A DNA stretch of 64,000 nt, taken from NCBI GenBank assembly GCA_001783215.1, contig MFRA01000008.1:33312-97311 (forward strand), in the 5' to 3' direction. Made by a program: the position numbers and the translations under genes. Source of the DNA: Candidatus Magasanikbacteria bacterium RIFOXYD1_FULL_40_23. GTDB taxonomy: Bacteria; Patescibacteriota; Patescibacteriia; Magasanikbacterales; GWA2-37-8. This document shows, piece by piece, positions 1-60,026 of this stretch (position 1 is the stretch's first letter; each line of letters starts with the position of its first letter). The notes under the pieces were generated by a model. That model was not told where the DNA came from, made no database searches, and was given only the letters and a program-made list of their open reading frames with translations.

Positions 1-36
1 TAATTTATTTTTTGGTTATTTTTAATTTAAAAATAT

Positions 37-462
37 ATGGATACCTCTATTTATAAAAAAGTTATATTAGCGGTTAGTTTTTCTGGGTTTTTATTTTCCG
101 GGTATTTAAGCGCGGTAAAATTTTTCACTTCGGCCTGCGCCTTGAGTGAGCCCTGTCCTTATTTTTTAGGCTACCCAGCCTGCTGGTATGGTTTTGTAAT
201 GTTTTCTGTTTTATTTATTTCTGCATTGCTTGGTATTTTAAAGATCTCCAAACTTAAAACTGTAGCGTTGATTCATCTTTTAGTTTCTTCCCTCGGCGTG
301 CTCTTTGCTGGGTATTTCACTGTTCCAGAGATCGGTCGTTTATTATCCGGAGAGGGCCGCTACTTTCTTGGTCTTCCAACCTGTGCTTATGGATTAGTTT
401 TTTATATTATTCTTCTTATTTTGGCTGTCATGTATTTAAAACGTAAGGAAACAGAAGTTTAA
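37..462 (+). CDS. integral membrane protein (about 4 TM) with Cys-containing loop, function unknown
   Basis: ORF track; hydrophobic helices; loop SACALSEPCPYFLGYPAC; no CXXC so VKOR/DsbB assignment not supported. Confidence 0.45.
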   Translation: MDTSIYKKVILAVSFSGFLFSGYLSAVKFFTSACALSEPCPYFLGYPACWYGFVMFSVLFISALLGILKISKLKTVALIHLLVSSLGVLFAGYFTVPEIGRLLSGEGRYFLGLPTCAYGLVFYIILLILAVMYLKRKETEV

Positions 463-52747: not shown

Positions 52748-52820
52748 GCCGTCTTAGCTCAGCTGGTAGAGCAACAGTTTTGTAAACTGTAGGTCCAGGG
52801 TTCGAACCCCTGAGACGGCT
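52748..52820 (+). tRNA. tRNA-Thr(UGU)
   Basis: Cloverleaf folded by hand: acceptor gccgtct/agacggc, anticodon loop ttTGTaa, T-loop ttcgaac. Confidence 0.85.
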
Positions 52821-52875
52821 CAGGAGAAAATTTTAGTAGAGTCGAACCCATCAAACGTCTCCAGATTGGTTCAAC

Positions 52876-52957
52876 GGGTGGATTCCCGAGCGGTCAAAGG
52901 GGGCAGACTGTAAATCTGCTGGCTCCGCCTTCGTAGGTTCGATTCCTACTCCACCCA
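52876..52957 (+). tRNA. tRNA-Tyr(GUA)
   Basis: Acceptor gggtgga/tccaccc, anticodon loop ctGTAaa, long variable arm; close to E. coli tRNA-Tyr. Confidence 0.85.
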
Positions 52958-53031
52958 CCGGTTATTTGACAACCACATTACCTGTATGGAAGAGCTTTAC
53001 TAGTAGTATATTTATATGTTAGTATATAAAT

Positions 53032-53640
53032 ATGATTACTTCTATCCCATCAAAGAAAATATTAGTAAAACTTTATTTAGGGCAAAAGAAATCGGCTCAG
53101 GATATTGCTGATATTTTTAAATGCTCTCTAAATAAGATTTGGTACTGGATGGGGAAGTATAAAATAAAATCAAGAACAATTAGCGAGGCAATTTATAGAC
53201 AGAAAAATCCAAAAGGAGATCCGTTCAAAATAAAATATCCAAGTACACTGAAAGAAGCCATGTTATTCGGTTTTGGTTTGGGCTTATATTGGGGCGAGGG
53301 AACAAAAGCCAATAAATATGCGGTAAGACTGGGAAATACTGATTATAGATTAATAAAAAAATTTATTAAGTTTTTAATAAAAGTATTCACCATTAAAAAG
53401 AAAGATCTGAAATTTAGTTTACAGCTATTTACCGATATTAATCCAAAAACAGCACTTAACTTTTGGGTGAATAGTCTGAACGTGACTAGGGATCAATTTT
53501 ATAAGAGTACCATTACGAAGTCAGTCAGAAAAGGAACATATGGAAAGAAAAGTGAATATGGAGTTTTAACAGTTTATTATCATAATAAGAAAATGAGAGA
53601 TGTATTAGTAAGTCTTTTGGATAAAGAAAAAAGTAAGTAA
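53032..53640 (+). CDS. LAGLIDADG-family homing-endonuclease-like protein with N-terminal HTH
   Basis: Single MLFGFGLGLYWGEGT motif (LAGLIDADG variant with GEG) followed by KFIKFL helix; stop codon abuts intron-containing tRNA. Confidence 0.5.
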   Translation: MITSIPSKKILVKLYLGQKKSAQDIADIFKCSLNKIWYWMGKYKIKSRTISEAIYRQKNPKGDPFKIKYPSTLKEAMLFGFGLGLYWGEGTKANKYAVRLGNTDYRLIKKFIKFLIKVFTIKKKDLKFSLQLFTDINPKTALNFWVNSLNVTRDQFYKSTITKSVRKGTYGKKSEYGVLTVYYHNKKMRDVLVSLLDKEKSK

Positions 53641-53901
53641 TGCCGTTGTAGCTCAGATGGTAGAGCATTTCCATGGTGGGTCGCCAATGACTCCTGCCCA
53701 TTGTGAGGGAAATCTTGCAATGTTACCCGAATTACGGTTAATAGCCATTACAATGGCCAAGACCGTGGCGTGAGTACGCCCGAACGACTGACAAGGGGAG
53801 CTAAGCTCGAAAGAGTATGCTCAAGATACAGTCTAGCCCTCTAATTAAAAGTAGAGGTGTAAGCGAAGGAAAAGGTCTCGGGTTCAATTCCCGACAACGG
53901 C
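53641..53901 (+). tRNA. tRNA-Thr(GGU) interrupted by about 188-nt intron between positions 36 and 37
   Basis: Exon 1 gccgttgtagctcagatggtagagcatttccatggt; exon 2 aaggaaaaggtctcgggttcaattcccgacaacggct; stems pair canonically once 53677-53864 is removed. Confidence 0.7.
53677..53864 (+). ncRNA. small group I intron in tRNA-Thr anticodon loop
   Basis: 5' exon ends in U; P1 can form between exon catggt and intron gccaatg; R-like element gaACGACUgAcAAGg, S-like element AAGAUAcAGUCu, terminal G before 3' exon. Confidence 0.6.
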
Positions 53902-54054
53902 TCAAGCTCTGAACTATGATATAAGGAACATTTTTCGTGAGCGTTAATATAAAAATAAGCGCTGTACCAGCGCTTGAAATTACGTCGTTCGTCCTAGATG
54001 AAGGCAAGTCTTCGCCTAGGAACTTACTAGAAATTATAAATTAAAATAAAAAAT

Positions 54055-54337: not shown

Positions 54338-54408
54338 AGGCCTGTAGTTTCAATGGTAAAACATCGGTCTCCAAAACCGAGGTTCTCGGTTCGAATCCGA
54401 GCGGGCCT
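54338..54408 (+). tRNA. tRNA-Trp(CCA)
   Basis: Acceptor aggcctg/cgggcct, anticodon loop ctCCAaa, T-loop ttcgaat. Confidence 0.85.
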
Positions 54409-55837
54409 GCACAGACCGAAATAGGGCGATTTCCGGTACAATTCGGTAGCCCCCTTTCGCTAAACAATCAAATTTTTTGCCTTTCACCGTAAAGTTCGAG
54501 CCTATTTTTTTAAGAAATGTTCGAATTTGGAGAAAATCGCCGTCCGCGGCGATTTTTTTGGCTTGGCAACTGGATAAAATGAATTCCCTCATCGGTTCGA
54601 GCCAATCGTTGCCCTTGTTCTTAACTTCCTTAATTTTGGCTTCCAGATCAAGTTTGTCGTTGAGGAGTTTTTCTTTTTTGTTTATGTATTCTGGTTTATC
54701 AATAATGCCATCCAAATGAGAATCAAGGAGTTTATCTAGCTTTGTCTTAATAGGCATTATTTGTCCTTCTACGGCCTGAACAAGGGCGTCGGACGACTGG
54801 ATTGCGGATGCTTGCTCCTCGTTGAGTTTAGCAAGCAATTTTTCGGTCCAGTCGTCTGACAAAGAAACTTTTTGCAGAGTATCTTTAAACTGGCTCACCA
54901 ATTCTTCTTCGCGGATATATTTTTCATCACAGTTAGTTCGCTTTTTAGTACAGCGGTAATAAATATGTCCTTTGTGCTTTTCGGCGGTAATGGCTCGTCC
55001 GCAAGATCCACAGCTCATTAGGCCGGTAAAAATATATCCGTGGCTGCTTTTTTTTCGGCGCTTGCCCCGCAAGAGCATTACCGCTTGCGCATCGTCAAAA
55101 AGTTTCTTGGTGATTATCGGTTTATGCGTACCCTGGTGTAGTTCGTCGTTAAAACGAAACACGCCAGTGTAAAAAGGATTTTTGAGAATATGCTGCATGT
55201 CGCCCGGCATCATTATTTTGTTTGTCTTAGTGCGAATATCAAATTTTTGTATTAGTTGTTCAAAAGTATATTCGCCGGTCGCATACAATTCAAAAATCCT
55301 TTTTACAAGTTTATGCTTTTCGGGGTCGGGGAGTATGGTATGGTGGCGCAGGTCGTTATTATATCCAAATGGGGCTTTTCCCGGCCAAATTCCTTTGCGG
55401 AGTTTTTGTCTTATTCCACGCTTTACATTTTCGCTTAGGTTATCTACATAATATTTGCTTTGGCCGAAAGAAATATTAAGCATAAACTTTCCTTGCGGTG
55501 TGTTGTCAAACCAAAACGTTGGAAATTTGAGGGAATTTATTTTACCAGTGTCCAACATGTAAATAACCCGACCGCCATCCACACTGTTGCGGGCTAGGCG
55601 GTCGGGATGCCAAGCCAAAATGCCGTCGGCCTCGCCGGCATCAATTCGCGATAACATTTCGCCGAACAAAGTTCGGCCAGGTTGTTTGGCAGTTTTTGCC
55701 TCGCAAAGCGAGGCGACGATTTCAAGTTTTTCTTTGACGGCAAATTCTTTTAACTCGTCGATTTGAGCGTCGATTGACATTACTTGACGCTCTTCCGATT
55801 CGCTAGACTTGCGAGCGTATAAAAAATATTTGGCCAT
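54350..55837 (-). CDS. large serine recombinase (resolvase domain + recombinase domain + zinc ribbon + coiled coil)
   Basis: YARKSS catalytic Ser region, CGSCG...C..C zinc ribbon, long coiled coil; last about 35 codons are encoded by inverted repeat A and the frame runs antisense through tRNA-Trp, so true stop uncertain. Confidence 0.8.
   Translation of the reverse strand: MAKYFLYARKSSESEERQVMSIDAQIDELKEFAVKEKLEIVASLCEAKTAKQPGRTLFGEMLSRIDAGEADGILAWHPDRLARNSVDGGRVIYMLDTGKINSLKFPTFWFDNTPQGKFMLNISFGQSKYYVDNLSENVKRGIRQKLRKGIWPGKAPFGYNNDLRHHTILPDPEKHKLVKRIFELYATGEYTFEQLIQKFDIRTKTNKIMMPGDMQHILKNPFYTGVFRFNDELHQGTHKPIITKKLFDDAQAVMLLRGKRRKKSSHGYIFTGLMSCGSCGRAITAEKHKGHIYYRCTKKRTNCDEKYIREEELVSQFKDTLQKVSLSDDWTEKLLAKLNEEQASAIQSSDALVQAVEGQIMPIKTKLDKLLDSHLDGIIDKPEYINKKEKLLNDKLDLEAKIKEVKNKGNDWLEPMREFILSSCQAKKIAADGDFLQIRTFLKKIGSNFTVKGKKFDCLAKGGYRIVPEIALFRSVQARSDSNREPRFWRPMFYH
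54406..54510. repeat. inverted-repeat A (blocks X 54406-54480 and Y 54481-54510), starts at 3' end of tRNA-Trp
   Basis: Exact reverse complements found at 55892-55966 (X') and 56094-56120 (Y'). Confidence 0.85.
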
Positions 55838-55891
55838 ACAATTTTATTTATTATAGAAAAGTTTGCTTTTGGTGTCCGCCGAGCGGACAAA

Positions 55892-55966
55892 GGCAAAAAA
55901 TTTGATTGTTTAGCGAAAGGGGGCTACCGAATTGTACCGGAAATCGCCCTATTTCGGTCTGTGCAG
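55892..55966. repeat. X' = reverse complement of block X
   Basis: ggcaaaaaatttgattgtttagcgaaagggggctaccgaattgtaccggaaatcgccctatttcggtctgtgcag. Confidence 0.85.
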
Positions 55967-56070
55967 CGGGGATACGAAAAATTACGAGGGGAATTTATGG
56001 GGGCCCAATAACGGGACGGGCGGAAGGAGGGGTTGGGGGAGGAATTCCGCCCGCCCACCGGCGCGCTTTT
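55964..56070. repeat. inverted-repeat B, left copy (about 107 bp, G-rich, GC-rich)
   Basis: Reverse complement present at 59826-59933 with about one mismatch; many G3-G5 runs. Confidence 0.85.
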
Positions 56071-56093
56071 TAAAAACTGCCAAACAACCTGTT

Positions 56094-56120
56094 AAAAAAA
56101 TAGGCTCGAACTTTACGGTG
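56094..56120. repeat. Y' = reverse complement of block Y (duplicate of recombinase codons KKIGSNFTV)
   Basis: aaaaaaataggctcgaactttacggtg; flanked with X'-B1 by a 12-bp inverted repeat gtttgcttttgg (55861) / ccaaaagcaaac (56122). Confidence 0.8.
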
Positions 56121-56248
56121 GCCAAAAGCAAACTTTTTTTATTATACCATATTAATAATTATCTTAGGTGGACAACTTATCTCTAAATATACTTGTAATC
56201 AAAGGGATAGTATGGTAAAATGTCCCTATCATAACTAATAAAAATATT

Positions 56249-56464
56249 ATGGAAGATCTTAAAATATTAAAAAACATTGATAAAAAACTATCAGCTTTAT
56301 TAGCACTTTCCATAGCTTCATGGTTCGGAAGCGCCGACGAAAAATTGAAGACTAAGCCGGAGACAATCCTTTCAACTGTTGGGATTGAAACAAGCGAAAT
56401 AGCTCTGATTTTAGGAAAAAAACTTGACGCTGTTAGAAAATCTATTCAAAGATCTAAAAAATAA
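56249..56464 (+). CDS. mini-HTH protein, paralogue 1 of 4
   Basis: 71 aa; KKLSALLALS...G....IALILG pattern shared with 56467, 56672, 57805 genes; TTGTAA-17-TAAAAT promoter upstream. Confidence 0.55.
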   Translation: MEDLKILKNIDKKLSALLALSIASWFGSADEKLKTKPETILSTVGIETSEIALILGKKLDAVRKSIQRSKK

Positions 56465-56466
56465 AT

Positions 56467-56670
56467 ATGGATAAAGAATTATTACAAACACAAAAAGAAA
56501 TCGTAATGTTATTAGCTATTTTGGTTAGACGGGGAGTTATGCAATCTAGTATCATTGCTGAAATGGATGCGGTGGGACTATCTCCGAAAAGGATTGCTGA
56601 ACTTTTGGGTACCAGCTCTAACACAGTAAGTGTCGCGCTTTCAAACGCACGTAAGAAAAAAAATAAATAA
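56467..56670 (+). CDS. mini-HTH protein, paralogue 2 (clearest HTH: LSPKRIAELLGTSSNTVSVALSNARKK)
   Basis: 67 aa; sigma-r4/resolvase-like HTH. Confidence 0.6.
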   Translation: MDKELLQTQKEIVMLLAILVRRGVMQSSIIAEMDAVGLSPKRIAELLGTSSNTVSVALSNARKKKNK

Positions 56671-56671
56671 T

Positions 56672-56863
56672 ATGTCAGGAAAAAAGCTAGAAGAAAAAAT
56701 GGATAATTTAGAAGCGATAAAACGTCTATTAGTTTTGTTATTAATCAAGCAGGGGGTTGGAATAGACGCGGTAGCCGATGTTTTAGAGGTAGGAGTAGCA
56801 ACGGTTAGCAGGATGGTGCCGCAAAAAAAGTTAAAAAAAGGGAATAAAATTACTATAGACTAA
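56672..56863 (+). CDS. mini-HTH protein, paralogue 3
   Basis: Start at ATG 56672 one nt after stop of previous gene; ORF-track 56630 start overlaps upstream gene. Confidence 0.5.
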   Translation: MSGKKLEEKMDNLEAIKRLLVLLLIKQGVGIDAVADVLEVGVATVSRMVPQKKLKKGNKITID

Positions 56864-56885
56864 GAATGGTTTTGAACAATTTTTT

Positions 56886-57791
56886 ATGACTCTGAACGTG
56901 TCCGATGTTAGATCGAATGGGCCTGAGCAGATACAACATGCCGCCCAATCCTTAGGAAGATCACCGCAGAGAATTGCGGTTTTTGAAGCCATATACAAAG
57001 GTGGTAGTACGCCTAAATCTGTAAAAATTTTAGCTAATTTATGTTTGGCAGAAATTAAGGATGGGAATCATCGAGAAATAAGAATTGCGCAAGAAGCAGC
57101 CTACTTGTTTAATCATGGAATGGTCGAAAAGTACGTTGATGAAAAAACACACAAATTATGTTATAAAAAAGTTGATTTTTATAAATCACACAAAAAACAA
57201 ATAGTTGAATTCGCGAGAGATCCTAAGAAAATGAAAAAAATGATCAGCAAACGCACGCCTATTGTTCGTGAAGTTAAATCAAGAACAGTTGTATATAAAA
57301 GCCCGATAAATGCAAAACAAATTTCAATTGATGATATTGATAATTTTCTTAAAGTAAAAAAAACGGGCGGTAGTAGCGCCTCGGCCAAAACAATTTTAGA
57401 AAAAAACATAAAGAATGGCTTTAAAAAAATTATTGGCGAAACCGGTAAATTTACAGATTGGGGTGGTGAGAGAAATGATTTATTTACAACACGGGTGAGG
57501 TTAGATAAAAAAAGAATTTCAGCTGCGATAGCATTTAAGGGCCGTGCGACGCAAGGAATATTAACGCCTAAAAAGCTTGGGAAGAATGGAGATCAGATTA
57601 ATAGGCTTTTTACTAGCCCAGCCCAATTATTCCTAGTTGTTTATCATAGCGAAATTGATCAGTCGGTGCTAGAACAAATGAAAGCCTTTGCTGTTGCTGT
57701 AGGACAGGCAGGTCAAAAGATTTACTACGGAATCGTTGATGGTAAGGACTTAAATGCAATAATTACAGCTTATCCTAATTTTTTTAAATAA
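56886..57791 (+). CDS. paralogue-type HTH N-domain fused to Mrr-like (PD-(D/E)xK) restriction-nuclease-like C-domain
   Basis: SPQRIAVFEAIYKGGSTPKSV resembles mini-HTH paralogues; C-part TDWGGERNDL...ISAAIAFKGR resembles Mrr catalytic GDGGID...QAK core (tentative). Confidence 0.5.
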   Translation: MTLNVSDVRSNGPEQIQHAAQSLGRSPQRIAVFEAIYKGGSTPKSVKILANLCLAEIKDGNHREIRIAQEAAYLFNHGMVEKYVDEKTHKLCYKKVDFYKSHKKQIVEFARDPKKMKKMISKRTPIVREVKSRTVVYKSPINAKQISIDDIDNFLKVKKTGGSSASAKTILEKNIKNGFKKIIGETGKFTDWGGERNDLFTTRVRLDKKRISAAIAFKGRATQGILTPKKLGKNGDQINRLFTSPAQLFLVVYHSEIDQSVLEQMKAFAVAVGQAGQKIYYGIVDGKDLNAIITAYPNFFK

Positions 57792-57804
57792 TTAGTAGTT
57801 ACTT

Positions 57805-57996
57805 ATGGACAATAATAAAGAGCTCAATAAAAAATTGGATGCGTTAGTTGATCTTTCCTTGCATTCCCTGGTTTTTTCCATGTATATGTCTGGAAACACA
57901 ATGGATCAGATATGTAAAAATTTACACATACACAAGACACGAGTTGTAGAATTGTTGAAAGGTTTGGAAAAGAATCGACAAACAAATAATAAATAA
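57805..57996 (+). CDS. mini-HTH protein, paralogue 4
   Basis: 63 aa; KKLDALVDLSLHSLV...TRVVELLKGLEK. Confidence 0.5.
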   Translation: MDNNKELNKKLDALVDLSLHSLVFSMYMSGNTMDQICKNLHIHKTRVVELLKGLEKNRQTNNK

Positions 57997-58009
57997 TAAT
58001 CCAAACAAA

Positions 58010-58936
58010 ATGAAAAGCTACTATCGCATAATGCTTGGAAGAGGGAGTGTTTACGCTAAAGAGGCGCATGACGGTAATTATATCGGCGCTGGCTGGTTTG
58101 AGAATGTAGACTTAAGCAACGATCTTCCAGAAAATCGTAGGGATTTTAACAAAAAATTTATACCGTTATACTTGGAAAAAAATCCTGGTAAATCAAAAAT
58201 CGCCGCGGGATTGGCCTGTGGTATGTTATACACAGTGGCCAAAGGTATCTCTGCTGGTGATATTGTTTTATGCCCGGACGGGCAGCGAAATTATTGGATA
58301 GGAGAAGTTCTGGGAGATTATCAGTTTCAACCTGGCACGAACTTGCCACATAGACGCACAATTCGCTGGTTTCCCAAAGCCATACCAAGAGATGAAATGA
58401 GCGAAGCGTTGCAGTACGCAACGGGATCTATAGGTGCTGGCGCAAATGTATCTGGCTTTGCAGACGAAATTGAAAATTTTATTTCAGGAACTCGTCCAGC
58501 AACAATTATTTCAACGGATGAAACTGTTGAGGATGCGGGTATTTTTGCGCTTGAAAAACATCTAGAAGATTTCCTAGTACAAAATTGGAAATCTACAGAG
58601 CTTGGAAAGAAGTATGATATTTATGAGGAGGGTGGAGAATCTGTTGGCCAACAATATCCAAGTGATACAGGGCCTATTGATATTCTAGCGATAAGTAAAG
58701 ATAAAAAAGAGATTCTTGTGGTAGAATTAAAAAAGGGAAGGATTGGCGATGTCGTAGTTGGTCAAATACAACGTTATATGGGTTTTGTTAAAGATGAGTT
58801 AGTCGAAGACGACCAGATAGTTCGTGGTGTAATTATTGCTTTTGAAGACGATATTAAAGTGCGCCGAGCTCTTTCGGTCGCGCAAAATATTGATTTCTAC
58901 ACATACAAAGTTAGTTTTAAACTTGAGAAAAAATAA
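58010..58936 (+). CDS. PUA/EVE-like N-domain fused to NucS/RecB-type PD-(D/E)xK nuclease; candidate modification-dependent restriction enzyme
   Basis: N-part YYRIMLGRGSVYAKEA..NYIGAGW...AGDIVLCPDG...YWIGEV (PUA-like pattern); C-part GPIDILAISKDKKEILVVELKKGRIGDVVVGQIQRYMGFV (D..E.K, QxxxY). Confidence 0.55.
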   Translation: MKSYYRIMLGRGSVYAKEAHDGNYIGAGWFENVDLSNDLPENRRDFNKKFIPLYLEKNPGKSKIAAGLACGMLYTVAKGISAGDIVLCPDGQRNYWIGEVLGDYQFQPGTNLPHRRTIRWFPKAIPRDEMSEALQYATGSIGAGANVSGFADEIENFISGTRPATIISTDETVEDAGIFALEKHLEDFLVQNWKSTELGKKYDIYEEGGESVGQQYPSDTGPIDILAISKDKKEILVVELKKGRIGDVVVGQIQRYMGFVKDELVEDDQIVRGVIIAFEDDIKVRRALSVAQNIDFYTYKVSFKLEKK

Positions 58937-58937
58937 T

Positions 58938-59750
58938 ATGAACAACAAAGACGATCAAAAATTAGTCGATGATTTTCTTTTTAATTATTATACAAAGGGT
59001 GTCTCTCTTAATTTGGATGAAAGTGACTTTATTGAGCTGAAAGGAAGCCATCCTTTTCTTAATTTGTTTAATATAGATGCAGTTAAAAAAGCCATAGCAG
59101 GAAGAAATAAAATTGAGGCTGAAAATTATGAAAAAAGCAGGAATAATGTAGAAGAGCTACAAAATGTTAGCCAATATTTTAAGGATAAGGCAATCGAAGA
59201 TTTATTAGAAAAACATTTTAAAAAGGCAGGCAAAAAGGAAAAGGAGTATATTAAAAATGAGCTTGAGAGTGAATTATATAAACACAGGACTTCCGATACA
59301 TTTGATGGGGAGCTTTACATGGATTTAATAAAAGGTGTCGATGGATTTAAAACCAAGTTTTTTTGGTCAAAAATAAAAAAAGTATTAGATTATGCCTGGT
59401 TTTTATTAATAAAATTTTCAACCTTGGCTGTAGTATTGGCAATTTATGATGTAGTTTACAAAGATTTTGAAGTGGTAGTGGCAAGCATATCTATTTTAAT
59501 ATATGTTTCTTTAACGGGGTTTATACAGTTATATACATTTTATACTGATTTGCATAGGATTGAGTATCTGAACGAGTTTAATGAGCTAAAAAAGATGATT
59601 AAACCGAACTATGCGTACGAAATAAAAGAGAAGGAATTATTAACTAGTATCAATAAAATAAATAAAGGGAATGTAAAAATTTTAATAAATTTAATATTTA
59701 ACTCCATTATTTATTTAATAGCAATTTTTCATTTGCTCAGCTTACTGTGA
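58938..59750 (+). CDS. coiled-coil protein with C-terminal 2-3 TM helices (possible membrane effector)
   Basis: ATG at 58938 directly after upstream stop; ORF-track 58836 start overlaps the previous gene. Confidence 0.45.
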   Translation: MNNKDDQKLVDDFLFNYYTKGVSLNLDESDFIELKGSHPFLNLFNIDAVKKAIAGRNKIEAENYEKSRNNVEELQNVSQYFKDKAIEDLLEKHFKKAGKKEKEYIKNELESELYKHRTSDTFDGELYMDLIKGVDGFKTKFFWSKIKKVLDYAWFLLIKFSTLAVVLAIYDVVYKDFEVVVASISILIYVSLTGFIQLYTFYTDLHRIEYLNEFNELKKMIKPNYAYEIKEKELLTSINKINKGNVKILINLIFNSIIYLIAIFHLLSLL

Positions 59751-59825
59751 GTTCTAAAGAGGTTCGAGGTGTACGTATAGATACGCAATAAAAGAATTTG
59801 CCGTCAAAGAAAAACTTGAAATCGT

Positions 59826-59933
59826 CAAAAAGCGCACCGGTGGGCGGGCGGAATTCCTCCCCCAACCCCTCCTTCCGCCCGTCCCGTTATTGGGCCCCCA
59901 TAAATTCCCCTCGTAATTTTTCGTATCCCCGCT
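59826..59933. repeat. inverted-repeat B, right copy
   Basis: Reverse complement of 55964-56070; ORF 59754..60371(-) and ORF 55932..56186(+) share peptides only because they read through the repeats and are spurious. Confidence 0.85.
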
Positions 59934-60026
59934 GCGATATCCTAAATGGCTATAATAGCCATTTTTTGGTTCTAATATTGACAGGTATTCAGAATTACAG
60001 TATAACTTGCCCCAAGGAGACGCACC

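Follow-up and report, generated by a model that had tools for sequence, protein, structure and literature searches.

Introns that split tRNA-Thr(GGU) between positions 36 and 37 were described by Nakagawa et al. (2026, mSystems) in three complete Patescibacteria genomes (GCA_001029635.1, GCA_016700375.1 and GCA_030583745.1), corresponding to 3 of 95 complete genomes (PMC13011429). These introns were missed by the Rfam group I intron model RF00028 (Intron_gpI), two of the three were called Arg(GCG) with an interruption at 34/35 by ARAGORN, and they were recovered by tFind (PMC13011429), a tool sourced to a preprint by Williams (2020, bioRxiv 10.1101/2020.01.27.920355). The same paper credits the term "divergent group I introns" to Castelle et al. 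(2018). In the published tree, the Thr introns form a long branch among the IA introns, no Patescibacteria tRNA intron falls in IC, and the shortest tRNA intron reported is 184 nucleotides (nt) long (PMC13011429). Mobility was concluded to be limited, since most of the tRNA introns lack an internal endonuclease gene; endonuclease genes were sought only inside introns, and the structure of the Thr introns is not described at helix level (PMC13011429). Here, we analyzed a split tRNA-Thr(GGU) gene in a 64-kb stretch of DNA (64,000 nt, referred to as the window) from Candidatus Magasanikbacteria, a metagenome bin of the Rifle groundwater series. Our analysis indicates with high confidence that this locus is a functional tRNA-Thr(GGU) gene carrying a minimal 188-nt group I intron between U36 and A37, of the family already reported in Patescibacteria.

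The locus reads GCCGUUGUAGCUCAGAUGGUAGAGCAUUUCCAUGGU on the 5' exon side, continues with an intron that starts with GGGUCGCC and ends with GUAAGCG, and resumes with AAGGAAAAGGUCUCGGGUUCAAUUCCCGACAACGGCU on the 3' exon side (Table 1). Joining of 53677 to 53866 yielded a canonical 74-nt tRNA-Thr(GGU) according to ARAGORN, with a 7-bp acceptor stem (G1-C72 and C2-G71 among its pairs), an anticodon stem of 5 bp and the anticodon loop AUGGUAA. The 5' exon ends in AUGGU, with the anticodon GGU at 53675-53677, and U36 (53677) supplies the U at -1 relative to the 5' splice site. The discriminator base is the U at 53902, and CCA is not encoded in the gene. Compared with an uninterrupted tRNA-Thr(GGU) from Patescibacteria (L014), the spliced tRNA is identical at 63 of 73 positions, and the acceptor stem and the anticodon region CCAUGGUAAGG are both identical. 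When the junctions were shifted by -2 to +2 nt, a U at -1 together with a terminal G was obtained only at 53677/53678 and 53865/53866.

An earlier reading of the same DNA, made from the letters alone (the sequence-only reading), had proposed a tRNA-Thr(GGU) split by a group I intron of about 188 nt after anticodon position 36. That the gene is split was borne out by the spliced ARAGORN call and by the same split in 33 other species genomes, and both the length (188 nt) and the site (36/37) proved correct. The coordinates were all 1 base too low; excision of exactly 53677-53864 would give the anticodon GGG (Pro). Standard tools did not annotate the gene correctly. Neither ARAGORN in default mode nor the Rfam tRNA model found it in the 64-kb window, in which four other tRNAs were found. 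The intron mode of ARAGORN detected the 188-nt interruption but positioned it at 34/35 and called the gene Arg(GCG). We rejected this call, since the exon would end in G and not in U and the product would be unlike Thr tRNAs.

For evidence independent of Rfam, we relied on a scan of one genome per GTDB species, using a pattern made of tRNA-Thr(GGU) exon sequence only, flanking a gap of 180-210 nt. At least 120 loci matched, and the counts given below are among the 120 matches listed. True split genes accounted for 33 of them, and the other 87 were tandem tRNA arrays, in which an intact tRNA-Thr(GGU) is followed by another tRNA; the latter served as control loci. In each of the 33 split genes, an insert of 175-202 nt follows U36, ends in G and is followed by A37-A38, and the anticodon stem is perfect (5/5 bp). 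The split-gene genomes that carry a taxon name are all Patescibacteria, namely Saccharibacteria, Kaiser-, Komeili-, Wolfe-, Yanofsky-, Nomura-, Ryan-, Uhr-, Jorgensen- and Magasanikbacteria, and Paceibacteria. The view that such tRNA introns are rare outside cyanobacteria and some proteobacteria, expressed in the sequence-only reading, is outdated: Patescibacteria often carry tRNA introns, and the insertion in Thr(GGU) at 36/37 is published.

Alignment of the window intron with the 33 others (alignment A1, 34 introns) revealed invariant blocks between variable stems, and the window copy retains all 48 invariant family positions. RNAalifold, given no prior, recovered P2, P4, P5, P6, P7, P8 and P9 from this alignment, and the P3 pseudoknot, the A107-U157 pair and P9.0 were added. 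The full structure comprises 45 pairs. Standard pairs occupy 95.0% of the cells, compared to 25-42% in controls with slid partners. Covariation scored 0.499, compared to at most 0.10 in these controls, and compensatory changes occur in 30 pairs. None of 500 shuffles reached the observed pairing and covariation. Thus, the compensatory stem substitutions across 34 species indicate selection on the RNA fold. The minimum free energy (MFE) fold of the window intron alone showed the same hairpins (z = -3.2). Moreover, the 33 foreign introns were used, with the window left out, to build a covariance model, which matched 53678-53865 end to end with 158.6 bits (E = 4e-59); this was its sole match in the 64 kb, and the model had no match in the 87 control loci. 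The group I assignment was hence upheld by the family alignment and by covariation of the core helices, including the P3/P7 pseudoknot and P9.0.

We then assigned the individual elements of the fold (Table 1). The L1/P1 extension hairpin varies in the family, with an A/U-rich loop instead in some members. We infer that P1 forms between exon bases G34, G35 and U36 and intron bases C21, C20 and G19, and that U36·G19 makes up the wobble pair of the 5' splice site. A guide pairing had been proposed earlier at the start of the intron; a guide does exist, but it lies at G19-C20-C21 (53696-53698), and bases 1-18 make up the P1 loop and extension. Compensatory changes were seen in 8 of the 9 pairs of P2, whose loop L2 is a GNRA tetraloop in 33 of the 34 introns. 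The P3 helix is paired in 99% of the cells, and a C-G pair is replaced by U-A in L015, L063 and L060, with CUC/GAG in two of these species and UCC/GGA in one. The R-like (53782-53796) and S-like (53823-53834) boxes, which the sequence-only reading had described, were confirmed and form P7: ACGACUG (53784-53790) pairs with CAGUCU (53829-53834, intron 152-157), leaving C108 bulged. Both elements align to the Rfam consensus AaAGACUA / AAGAUAUAGUCu. The core of P7, which presumably holds the guanosine-binding G-C pair, is invariant, and its outer pair A107-U157 is replaced by G-C in L085. At P9.0, the 159-187 pair is G-C in 18 introns, A-U in 14 and G·U in 2, and the 160-186 pair is C-G in 21 and U-A in 11. 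P9 of the window is capped by the 10-nt loop AAUUAAAAGU; L9 loops in the family measure 8-30 nt; their 3' side is A-rich and conserved, and a tetraloop is not evident. A final U in the 5' exon and a G at the end of the intron, both pointed out earlier, occur in 34 of 34 introns. On inspection of alignment A1, we found no consistent pairing or covariation for P10, the helix that would join the 3' exon to the guide region.

Covariation was observed in all 4 pairs counted in P8, and its internal loop resembles the 11-nt receptor of GAAA tetraloops. The type of L2 and the form of P8 were concordant in 34 of 34 introns: the 14 introns with L2 GAAA (one of them UAAA) all have a P8 that is long and carries an asymmetric GCUAAG/UAUGC-type loop, and the 20 introns with L2 GCAA, GCGA or GUAA all have a short regular P8. 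Because L2 type and P8 form covary in this manner, the L2 tetraloop probably docks into the receptor-like loop of P8. Five introns (L084, L054, L120, L064 and L015) are only 175-178 nt long and retain every core element.

Table 1. Coordinates of the split tRNA-Thr(GGU) locus and of the elements of its intron (intron position 1 is 53678 of the window)
Feature	Window position	Intron position	Strand	Details
Upstream open reading frame (ORF), 202 amino acids	53032-53640		+	N-terminal helix-turn-helix and conserved GLGLYWGEGTK domain of unclassified fold
tRNA-Thr(GGU) gene, split	53642-53902		+	ARAGORN on spliced sequence
5' exon	53642-53677		+	Acceptor 5' strand, D arm, anticodon-stem UUUCC, loop A32 U33 G34 G35 U36
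Group I intron	53678-53865		+	188 nt, site 36/37
L1/P1 extension hairpin	53678-53695	1-18	+	GGGUC...GACUCC; alignment A1, MFE fold
Internal guide sequence	53696-53698	19-21	+	G19 C20 C21; unchanged in 34/34 introns
P2 hairpin	53699-53722	22-45	+	GAAA tetraloop L2 at 53709-53712 (intron 32-35)
P3 5' strand	53726-53728	49-51	+	CCC; pairs with GGG 53795-53797; pseudoknot with P7
J3/4		52-56		GAAUU
P4	53734-53739 with 53761-53766	57-62 with 84-89	+	Invariant
J4/5 and J5/4		63-66 and 81-83		A-rich
P5 hairpin	53744-53757	67-80	+	4/4 pairs covary
P6 hairpin	53767-53780	90-103	+	4/5 pairs covary
J6/7		104-106		CGA
P7 5' strand	53784-53790	107-113	+	A107, C108 (bulge), G109 A110 C111 U112 G113; part of R box
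J7/3		114-117		ACAA
P3 3' strand	53795-53797	118-120	+	GGG
P8 hairpin	53798-53822	121-145	+	Asymmetric internal loop GCUAAG/UAUGC, GAAA cap
S box	53823-53834	146-157	+	J8/7 AAGAUA (intron 146-151) and P7 3' strand CAGUCU; invariant in family
P9.0 5' strand	53836-53837	159-160	+	G159 C160; pairs with G186 C187 (53863-53864), just before the terminal G
P9 hairpin	53838-53857	161-180	+	5/6 pairs covary
Terminal guanosine (omega-G)	53865	188	+	G188; G in 34/34 introns
3' exon	53866-53901		+	A37 A38, anticodon-stem GGAAA, variable loop AGGUC, T arm, acceptor 3' strand

This arrangement suggests how the intron would be removed, following standard group I chemistry. In the folded pre-tRNA, G34-G35-U36 would pair with G19-C20-C21 to form P1, placing the U·G wobble at the cleavage site, and the anticodon stem of the tRNA would keep both exons together. 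The core would consist of P3-P8 and P4-P6 arranged around P7, probably braced by the L2 GAAA docked in the P8 loop that resembles a receptor. The attack after U36 would come from a free guanosine held at the G-C pair of P7 beside the bulged C108. P9.0 (G159-C160 with G186-C187) would then put the terminal G188 into the same pocket, and exon ligation would restore the loop AUGGUAA. Catalysis by the intron and its splicing in vivo are thus predictions from the conserved fold.

The window intron is a further member of the described Patescibacteria Thr(GGU) 36/37 family, because its behavior is identical to that of the published Thr introns. Host gene, anticodon, site, phylum and size class are shared, as are the RF00028 miss and the ARAGORN call of Arg(GCG) at 34/35; this comparison draws on the published description of these introns. 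The window differs in its origin, a metagenome bin outside the three listed complete genomes. Other Patescibacteria tRNA group I introns, inserted at 35/36, share the phylum and have a similar size and architecture. In contrast to the window intron, they reside in other host tRNAs and are recognized by RF00028, and some contain an HNH endonuclease gene, whereas the window intron is ORF-less.

The Azoarcus tRNA-Ile intron, which is inserted after the third anticodon base, offers a second comparison. Both introns lie in the anticodon loop, are about 200 nt long and ORF-less, and draw (by prediction in our case) a 3-bp P1 from the anticodon. Docking of a GNRA L2 into P8 is established for Azoarcus (PMC4333387) and predicted here. 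However, the P9 hairpin of the window is closed by a 10-nt loop instead of a GNRA tetraloop, an L9-P5 clamp is not evident, P3 has only 3 bp, the RF00028 threshold is missed, and the Thr introns are grouped with IA and not with IC. The resemblance to the Azoarcus class pointed out in the sequence-only reading holds for size, site and the predicted L2-P8 docking, whereas the published subgroup analysis puts the Thr introns with IA and not with IC3. Helices P7.1/P7.2, which are typical of IA, were not found between P7 and P3' or P8 of the window intron.

A second split tRNA was noticed in one of the related loci. In L127 (2135-2419), a relative whose ORF is 71% identical to the window ORF, a group I intron of 202 nt interrupts the neighbouring tRNA-Tyr(GUA) gene. 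Its sequence is more canonical (GUAGAGACUAGA / AAGAUAUAGUCC), and it combines L2 GAAA with a CCUAAA/UAUGG receptor in P8, the same L2/P8 combination as in the window intron. The Thr-intron model scored 39.4 bits on this intron. The tRNA-Tyr gene of the window (52876-52959) is uninterrupted.

In a further step, the ORF upstream of the split gene was investigated. Its stop codon TAA (53638-53640) lies 1 nt before the tRNA. At least 1,116 proteins, each of them labelled hypothetical, make up the family of this ORF. In 17 of the 33 intron loci, a close homologue (45-59% identity) occupies the position directly upstream, on the same strand; it is frameshifted or truncated in three of these (L114, L037 and L017) and runs off the locus end in L117. 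Four intron loci have a distant homologue (27-31% identity) nearby, and 12 have none nearby. No ORF homologue was present in the 87 control loci, nearly all of which come from other phyla. Eight ORF lineages were looked up by protein, and all eight abut tRNA-Thr(GGU). The intron is present in five of these lineages (the window, L127, L131, L133 and L135) and absent from L129, L134 and L136, compared to a published base rate of 3 in 95 complete genomes for the Thr intron. We thus rejected the ORF as a strict marker of intron-bearing alleles, since the last three adjoin an intact tRNA-Thr(GGU). L101 (labelled Saccharibacteria) and L103 (labelled Ryanbacteria), assigned by label to different candidate phyla, carry near-identical introns. 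Their upstream ORFs also resemble each other, at about 51-54% identity to that of the window in each case. Transfer or loose taxon labels could account for this.

In most members of the family, the frame enters the tRNA and stops at a TAG that corresponds to tRNA bases U8-A9-G10, as in 77 of the 120 ORF homologues listed. The resulting overlap measures 10 nt in L129 (3184-3193), L131 (3085-3094), L133, L134, L135, L136, L046, L038, L091 and L106. Because the frame runs into the tRNA, the conserved C-terminal Leu-Pro-x is encoded by the acceptor stem G1-C2-C3. In these overlapping cases, RNase P cleavage at tRNA position +1 would strip the stop codon from any cotranscript, an arrangement that would be unusual for expression.

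The window ORF had no Pfam match at E <= 0.1, and neither did four distant members at E <= 1. A search against PDB sequences returned nothing outside the helix-turn-helix, and this module matches the one in phage proteins that carry an HNH endonuclease annotation (E = 1.7e-6). AlphaFold models (pLDDT 89 and 87) predict a helix-turn-helix followed by an alpha/beta domain, in which the first helix ends in the invariant GEG and is followed by a beta hairpin, with the overall order alpha-beta-alpha-beta-alpha-beta-beta-alpha. For comparison, the LAGLIDADG fold has the order alpha-beta-beta-alpha-beta-beta-alpha, with an acidic residue ending the motif helix. Foldseek found nothing at E < 0.001 for the second domain; recurrent weak matches, to proteins with intein or homing-endonuclease names, were 7qss (prob 0.99, E 0.099), as well as an intein-containing helicase/endonuclease from a phage and a homing endonuclease from a giant virus. 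A LAGLIDADG identity, suspected from the GLGLYWGEG motif, was supported neither by Pfam and NCBIfam nor by the PDB sequence search and Foldseek, and we regard it as a weak possibility.

A canonical endonuclease gene was seen at another split locus. L120 encodes, at about 150-950, a two-motif LAGLIDADG_3 protein of 267 amino acids (Pfam E = 5.4e-15), which ends 64 nt upstream of the split tRNA-Thr(GGU), and a distant ORF of the family described here (YWGEG family) lies downstream (1512-2189). Two endonuclease-like genes thus flank one split tRNA.

We tentatively suggest that the YWGEG family might be an unrecognized free-standing homing endonuclease, or an endonuclease/maturase, situated at the 5' edge of tRNA-Thr(GGU) and comobile with the intron 36 nt downstream; such a role is possible but, in our estimate, rather doubtful. 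Across genomes, the intron was seen together with the ORF, with a decayed ORF or by itself, the ORF was also seen by itself, and some alleles had neither; these states fit the life cycle of a homing element with an ORF-less intron, known as collaborative homing. In the described case of collaborative homing, a homing element is linked to an ORF-less intron (PMC3984707). The two situations have in common an ORF-less intron and a conserved ORF with a DNA-binding domain immediately beside the split gene. In contrast to the described case, the ORF here is a candidate nuclease, it adjoins the tRNA gene at its 5' end with or without the intron, and it resides on a cellular chromosome and not in a phage. 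The linkage between this ORF and the intron is possibly new.

Several observations weigh against the conclusion that the locus is a functional tRNA gene with a group I intron. The core is atypical, with a P3 of just 3 bp and a J7/3 that is longer than the 2-3 nt of Tetrahymena. P1, P4 and most of P7 are invariant and therefore outside the reach of covariation. With RF00028, the window stayed below the gathering score of 50 and thus gave no match, so that the search against Intron_gpI, which the sequence-only reading had put forward as a check on its own proposal, spoke formally against that proposal. A permissive local search gave 15.2 bits, covering only the S box and P9, in agreement with the Rfam consensus. 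When 11 homologues were searched with RF00028, one (L013) was listed and ten were not. The alignment of L013 in the local search is full length (23.9 bits, E = 2.4e-4), and in it J3/4, P4, J4/5, P5, P6, R, S and P9 coincide with the elements assigned here. Furthermore, published splicing assays of Patescibacteria tRNA introns cover Asn and Asp only and not Thr (PMC13011429). Finally, a tRNA-Thr(UGU) gene at 52748-52821, 900 bp upstream of the split gene, might cover all ACN codons, and selection on tRNA-Thr(GGU) is thus not assumable from the window alone. We did not take the sub-threshold RF00028 score as a refutation, because a false negative is documented for this family (PMC13011429).

The upstream ORF raises the alternative that the intron, although of group I descent, cannot splice by itself and that the ORF encodes a maturase, which would bind the minimal ribozyme and fold it. 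Some intron-encoded endonuclease-type proteins function as maturases, and a need for such a factor would be in line with the reduced core (3-bp P3, 188 nt, too divergent for RF00028). The frequent association of ORF and intron described above, in 17 of 33 intron loci and in five of eight ORF lineages, also points in this direction, but the intron core is equally conserved in the 12 loci that have no ORF homologue nearby and in the three whose ORF is frameshifted or truncated. Moreover, three of the eight lineages adjoin an intronless tRNA-Thr(GGU), the recognizable module of the ORF is a helix-turn-helix of the DNA type, and related Patescibacteria tRNA introns self-splice in vitro. We thus consider a dependence on this ORF to be unlikely.

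Decay of the gene is far less probable still. According to this explanation, tRNA-Thr(GGU) was killed by a nonsplicing insert and the loss is tolerated since the nearby tRNA-Thr(UGU) can read all ACN codons; the position of that gene and an intron below Rfam recognition are compatible with it. However, a decaying insert would hardly keep 48 of 48 invariant positions and score 158.6 bits end to end against a model made from other species, both exons are intact with perfect stems, and the stems show compensatory substitutions across 34 species. That the insert is not a group I intron at all but a bulge-helix-bulge intron, a transposon remnant or the junction of two partial tRNA pseudogenes, for which the sole support is that no Rfam match exceeds threshold, can be dismissed almost entirely, given the exact complementarity of the two halves (7/7 acceptor and 5/5 anticodon-stem pairs, which also answers the pseudogene pair raised by the earlier reading), the helix order with R/S boxes, P3/P7 pseudoknot, P9.0, terminal G and covariation, the finding that Intron_gpI is the sole Rfam family with a sub-threshold full-length alignment, and an insert that has neither terminal repeats nor a long ORF. 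Our preferred reading hence is a functional tRNA-Thr(GGU) gene with a 188-nt group I intron.

The split gene is part of a tRNA cluster in the order tRNA-Thr(UGU), tRNA-Tyr, tRNA-Thr(GGU), rpmG and tRNA-Trp, which is the usual arrangement. A scan for promoters and terminators around the locus gave counts no better than chance. Further downstream, a large serine recombinase gene (Resolvase, Recombinase and Zn_ribbon_recom domains; 54350-55837, reverse strand) overlaps the 3' part of tRNA-Trp (54338-54410). Nested inverted repeats lie around this gene, at 54407-54489 / 55884-55966 (83 nt, 98%), 55963-56071 / 59827-59935 (109 nt, 99%), 55715-55752 / 59789-59826 and 54485-54513 / 56092-56120. Strain variants of the same contig (L003 and L005) have a different gene after tRNA-Trp. 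The region 54338-59935 thus looks like a strain-variable integrated or invertible element.

Standard annotation either misses the split gene (ARAGORN in default mode, Rfam) or miscalls its amino acid (ARAGORN in intron mode). Patescibacteria genomes therefore seem to be without tRNA-Thr(GGU), which affects completeness scores and the inference of codon usage. The fold presented here is the first model to cover group I introns of this very small kind (175-218 nt) helix by helix, including P9.0 and a predicted L2-P8 clamp. The family covariance model detects the Thr introns cleanly, and both models could guide splicing assays and work on minimal ribozymes. The members of 175-178 nt could be candidates for such work and may rank among the shortest natural group I introns. 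If the proposed comobility holds true, a homing ORF would explain the presence of an ORF-less intron at the same site across many Patescibacteria lineages, and the published conclusion of low mobility for these tRNA introns would need revision. Should the ORF indeed encode a nuclease, it would represent a new mobile-element partner for bacterial tRNA introns.

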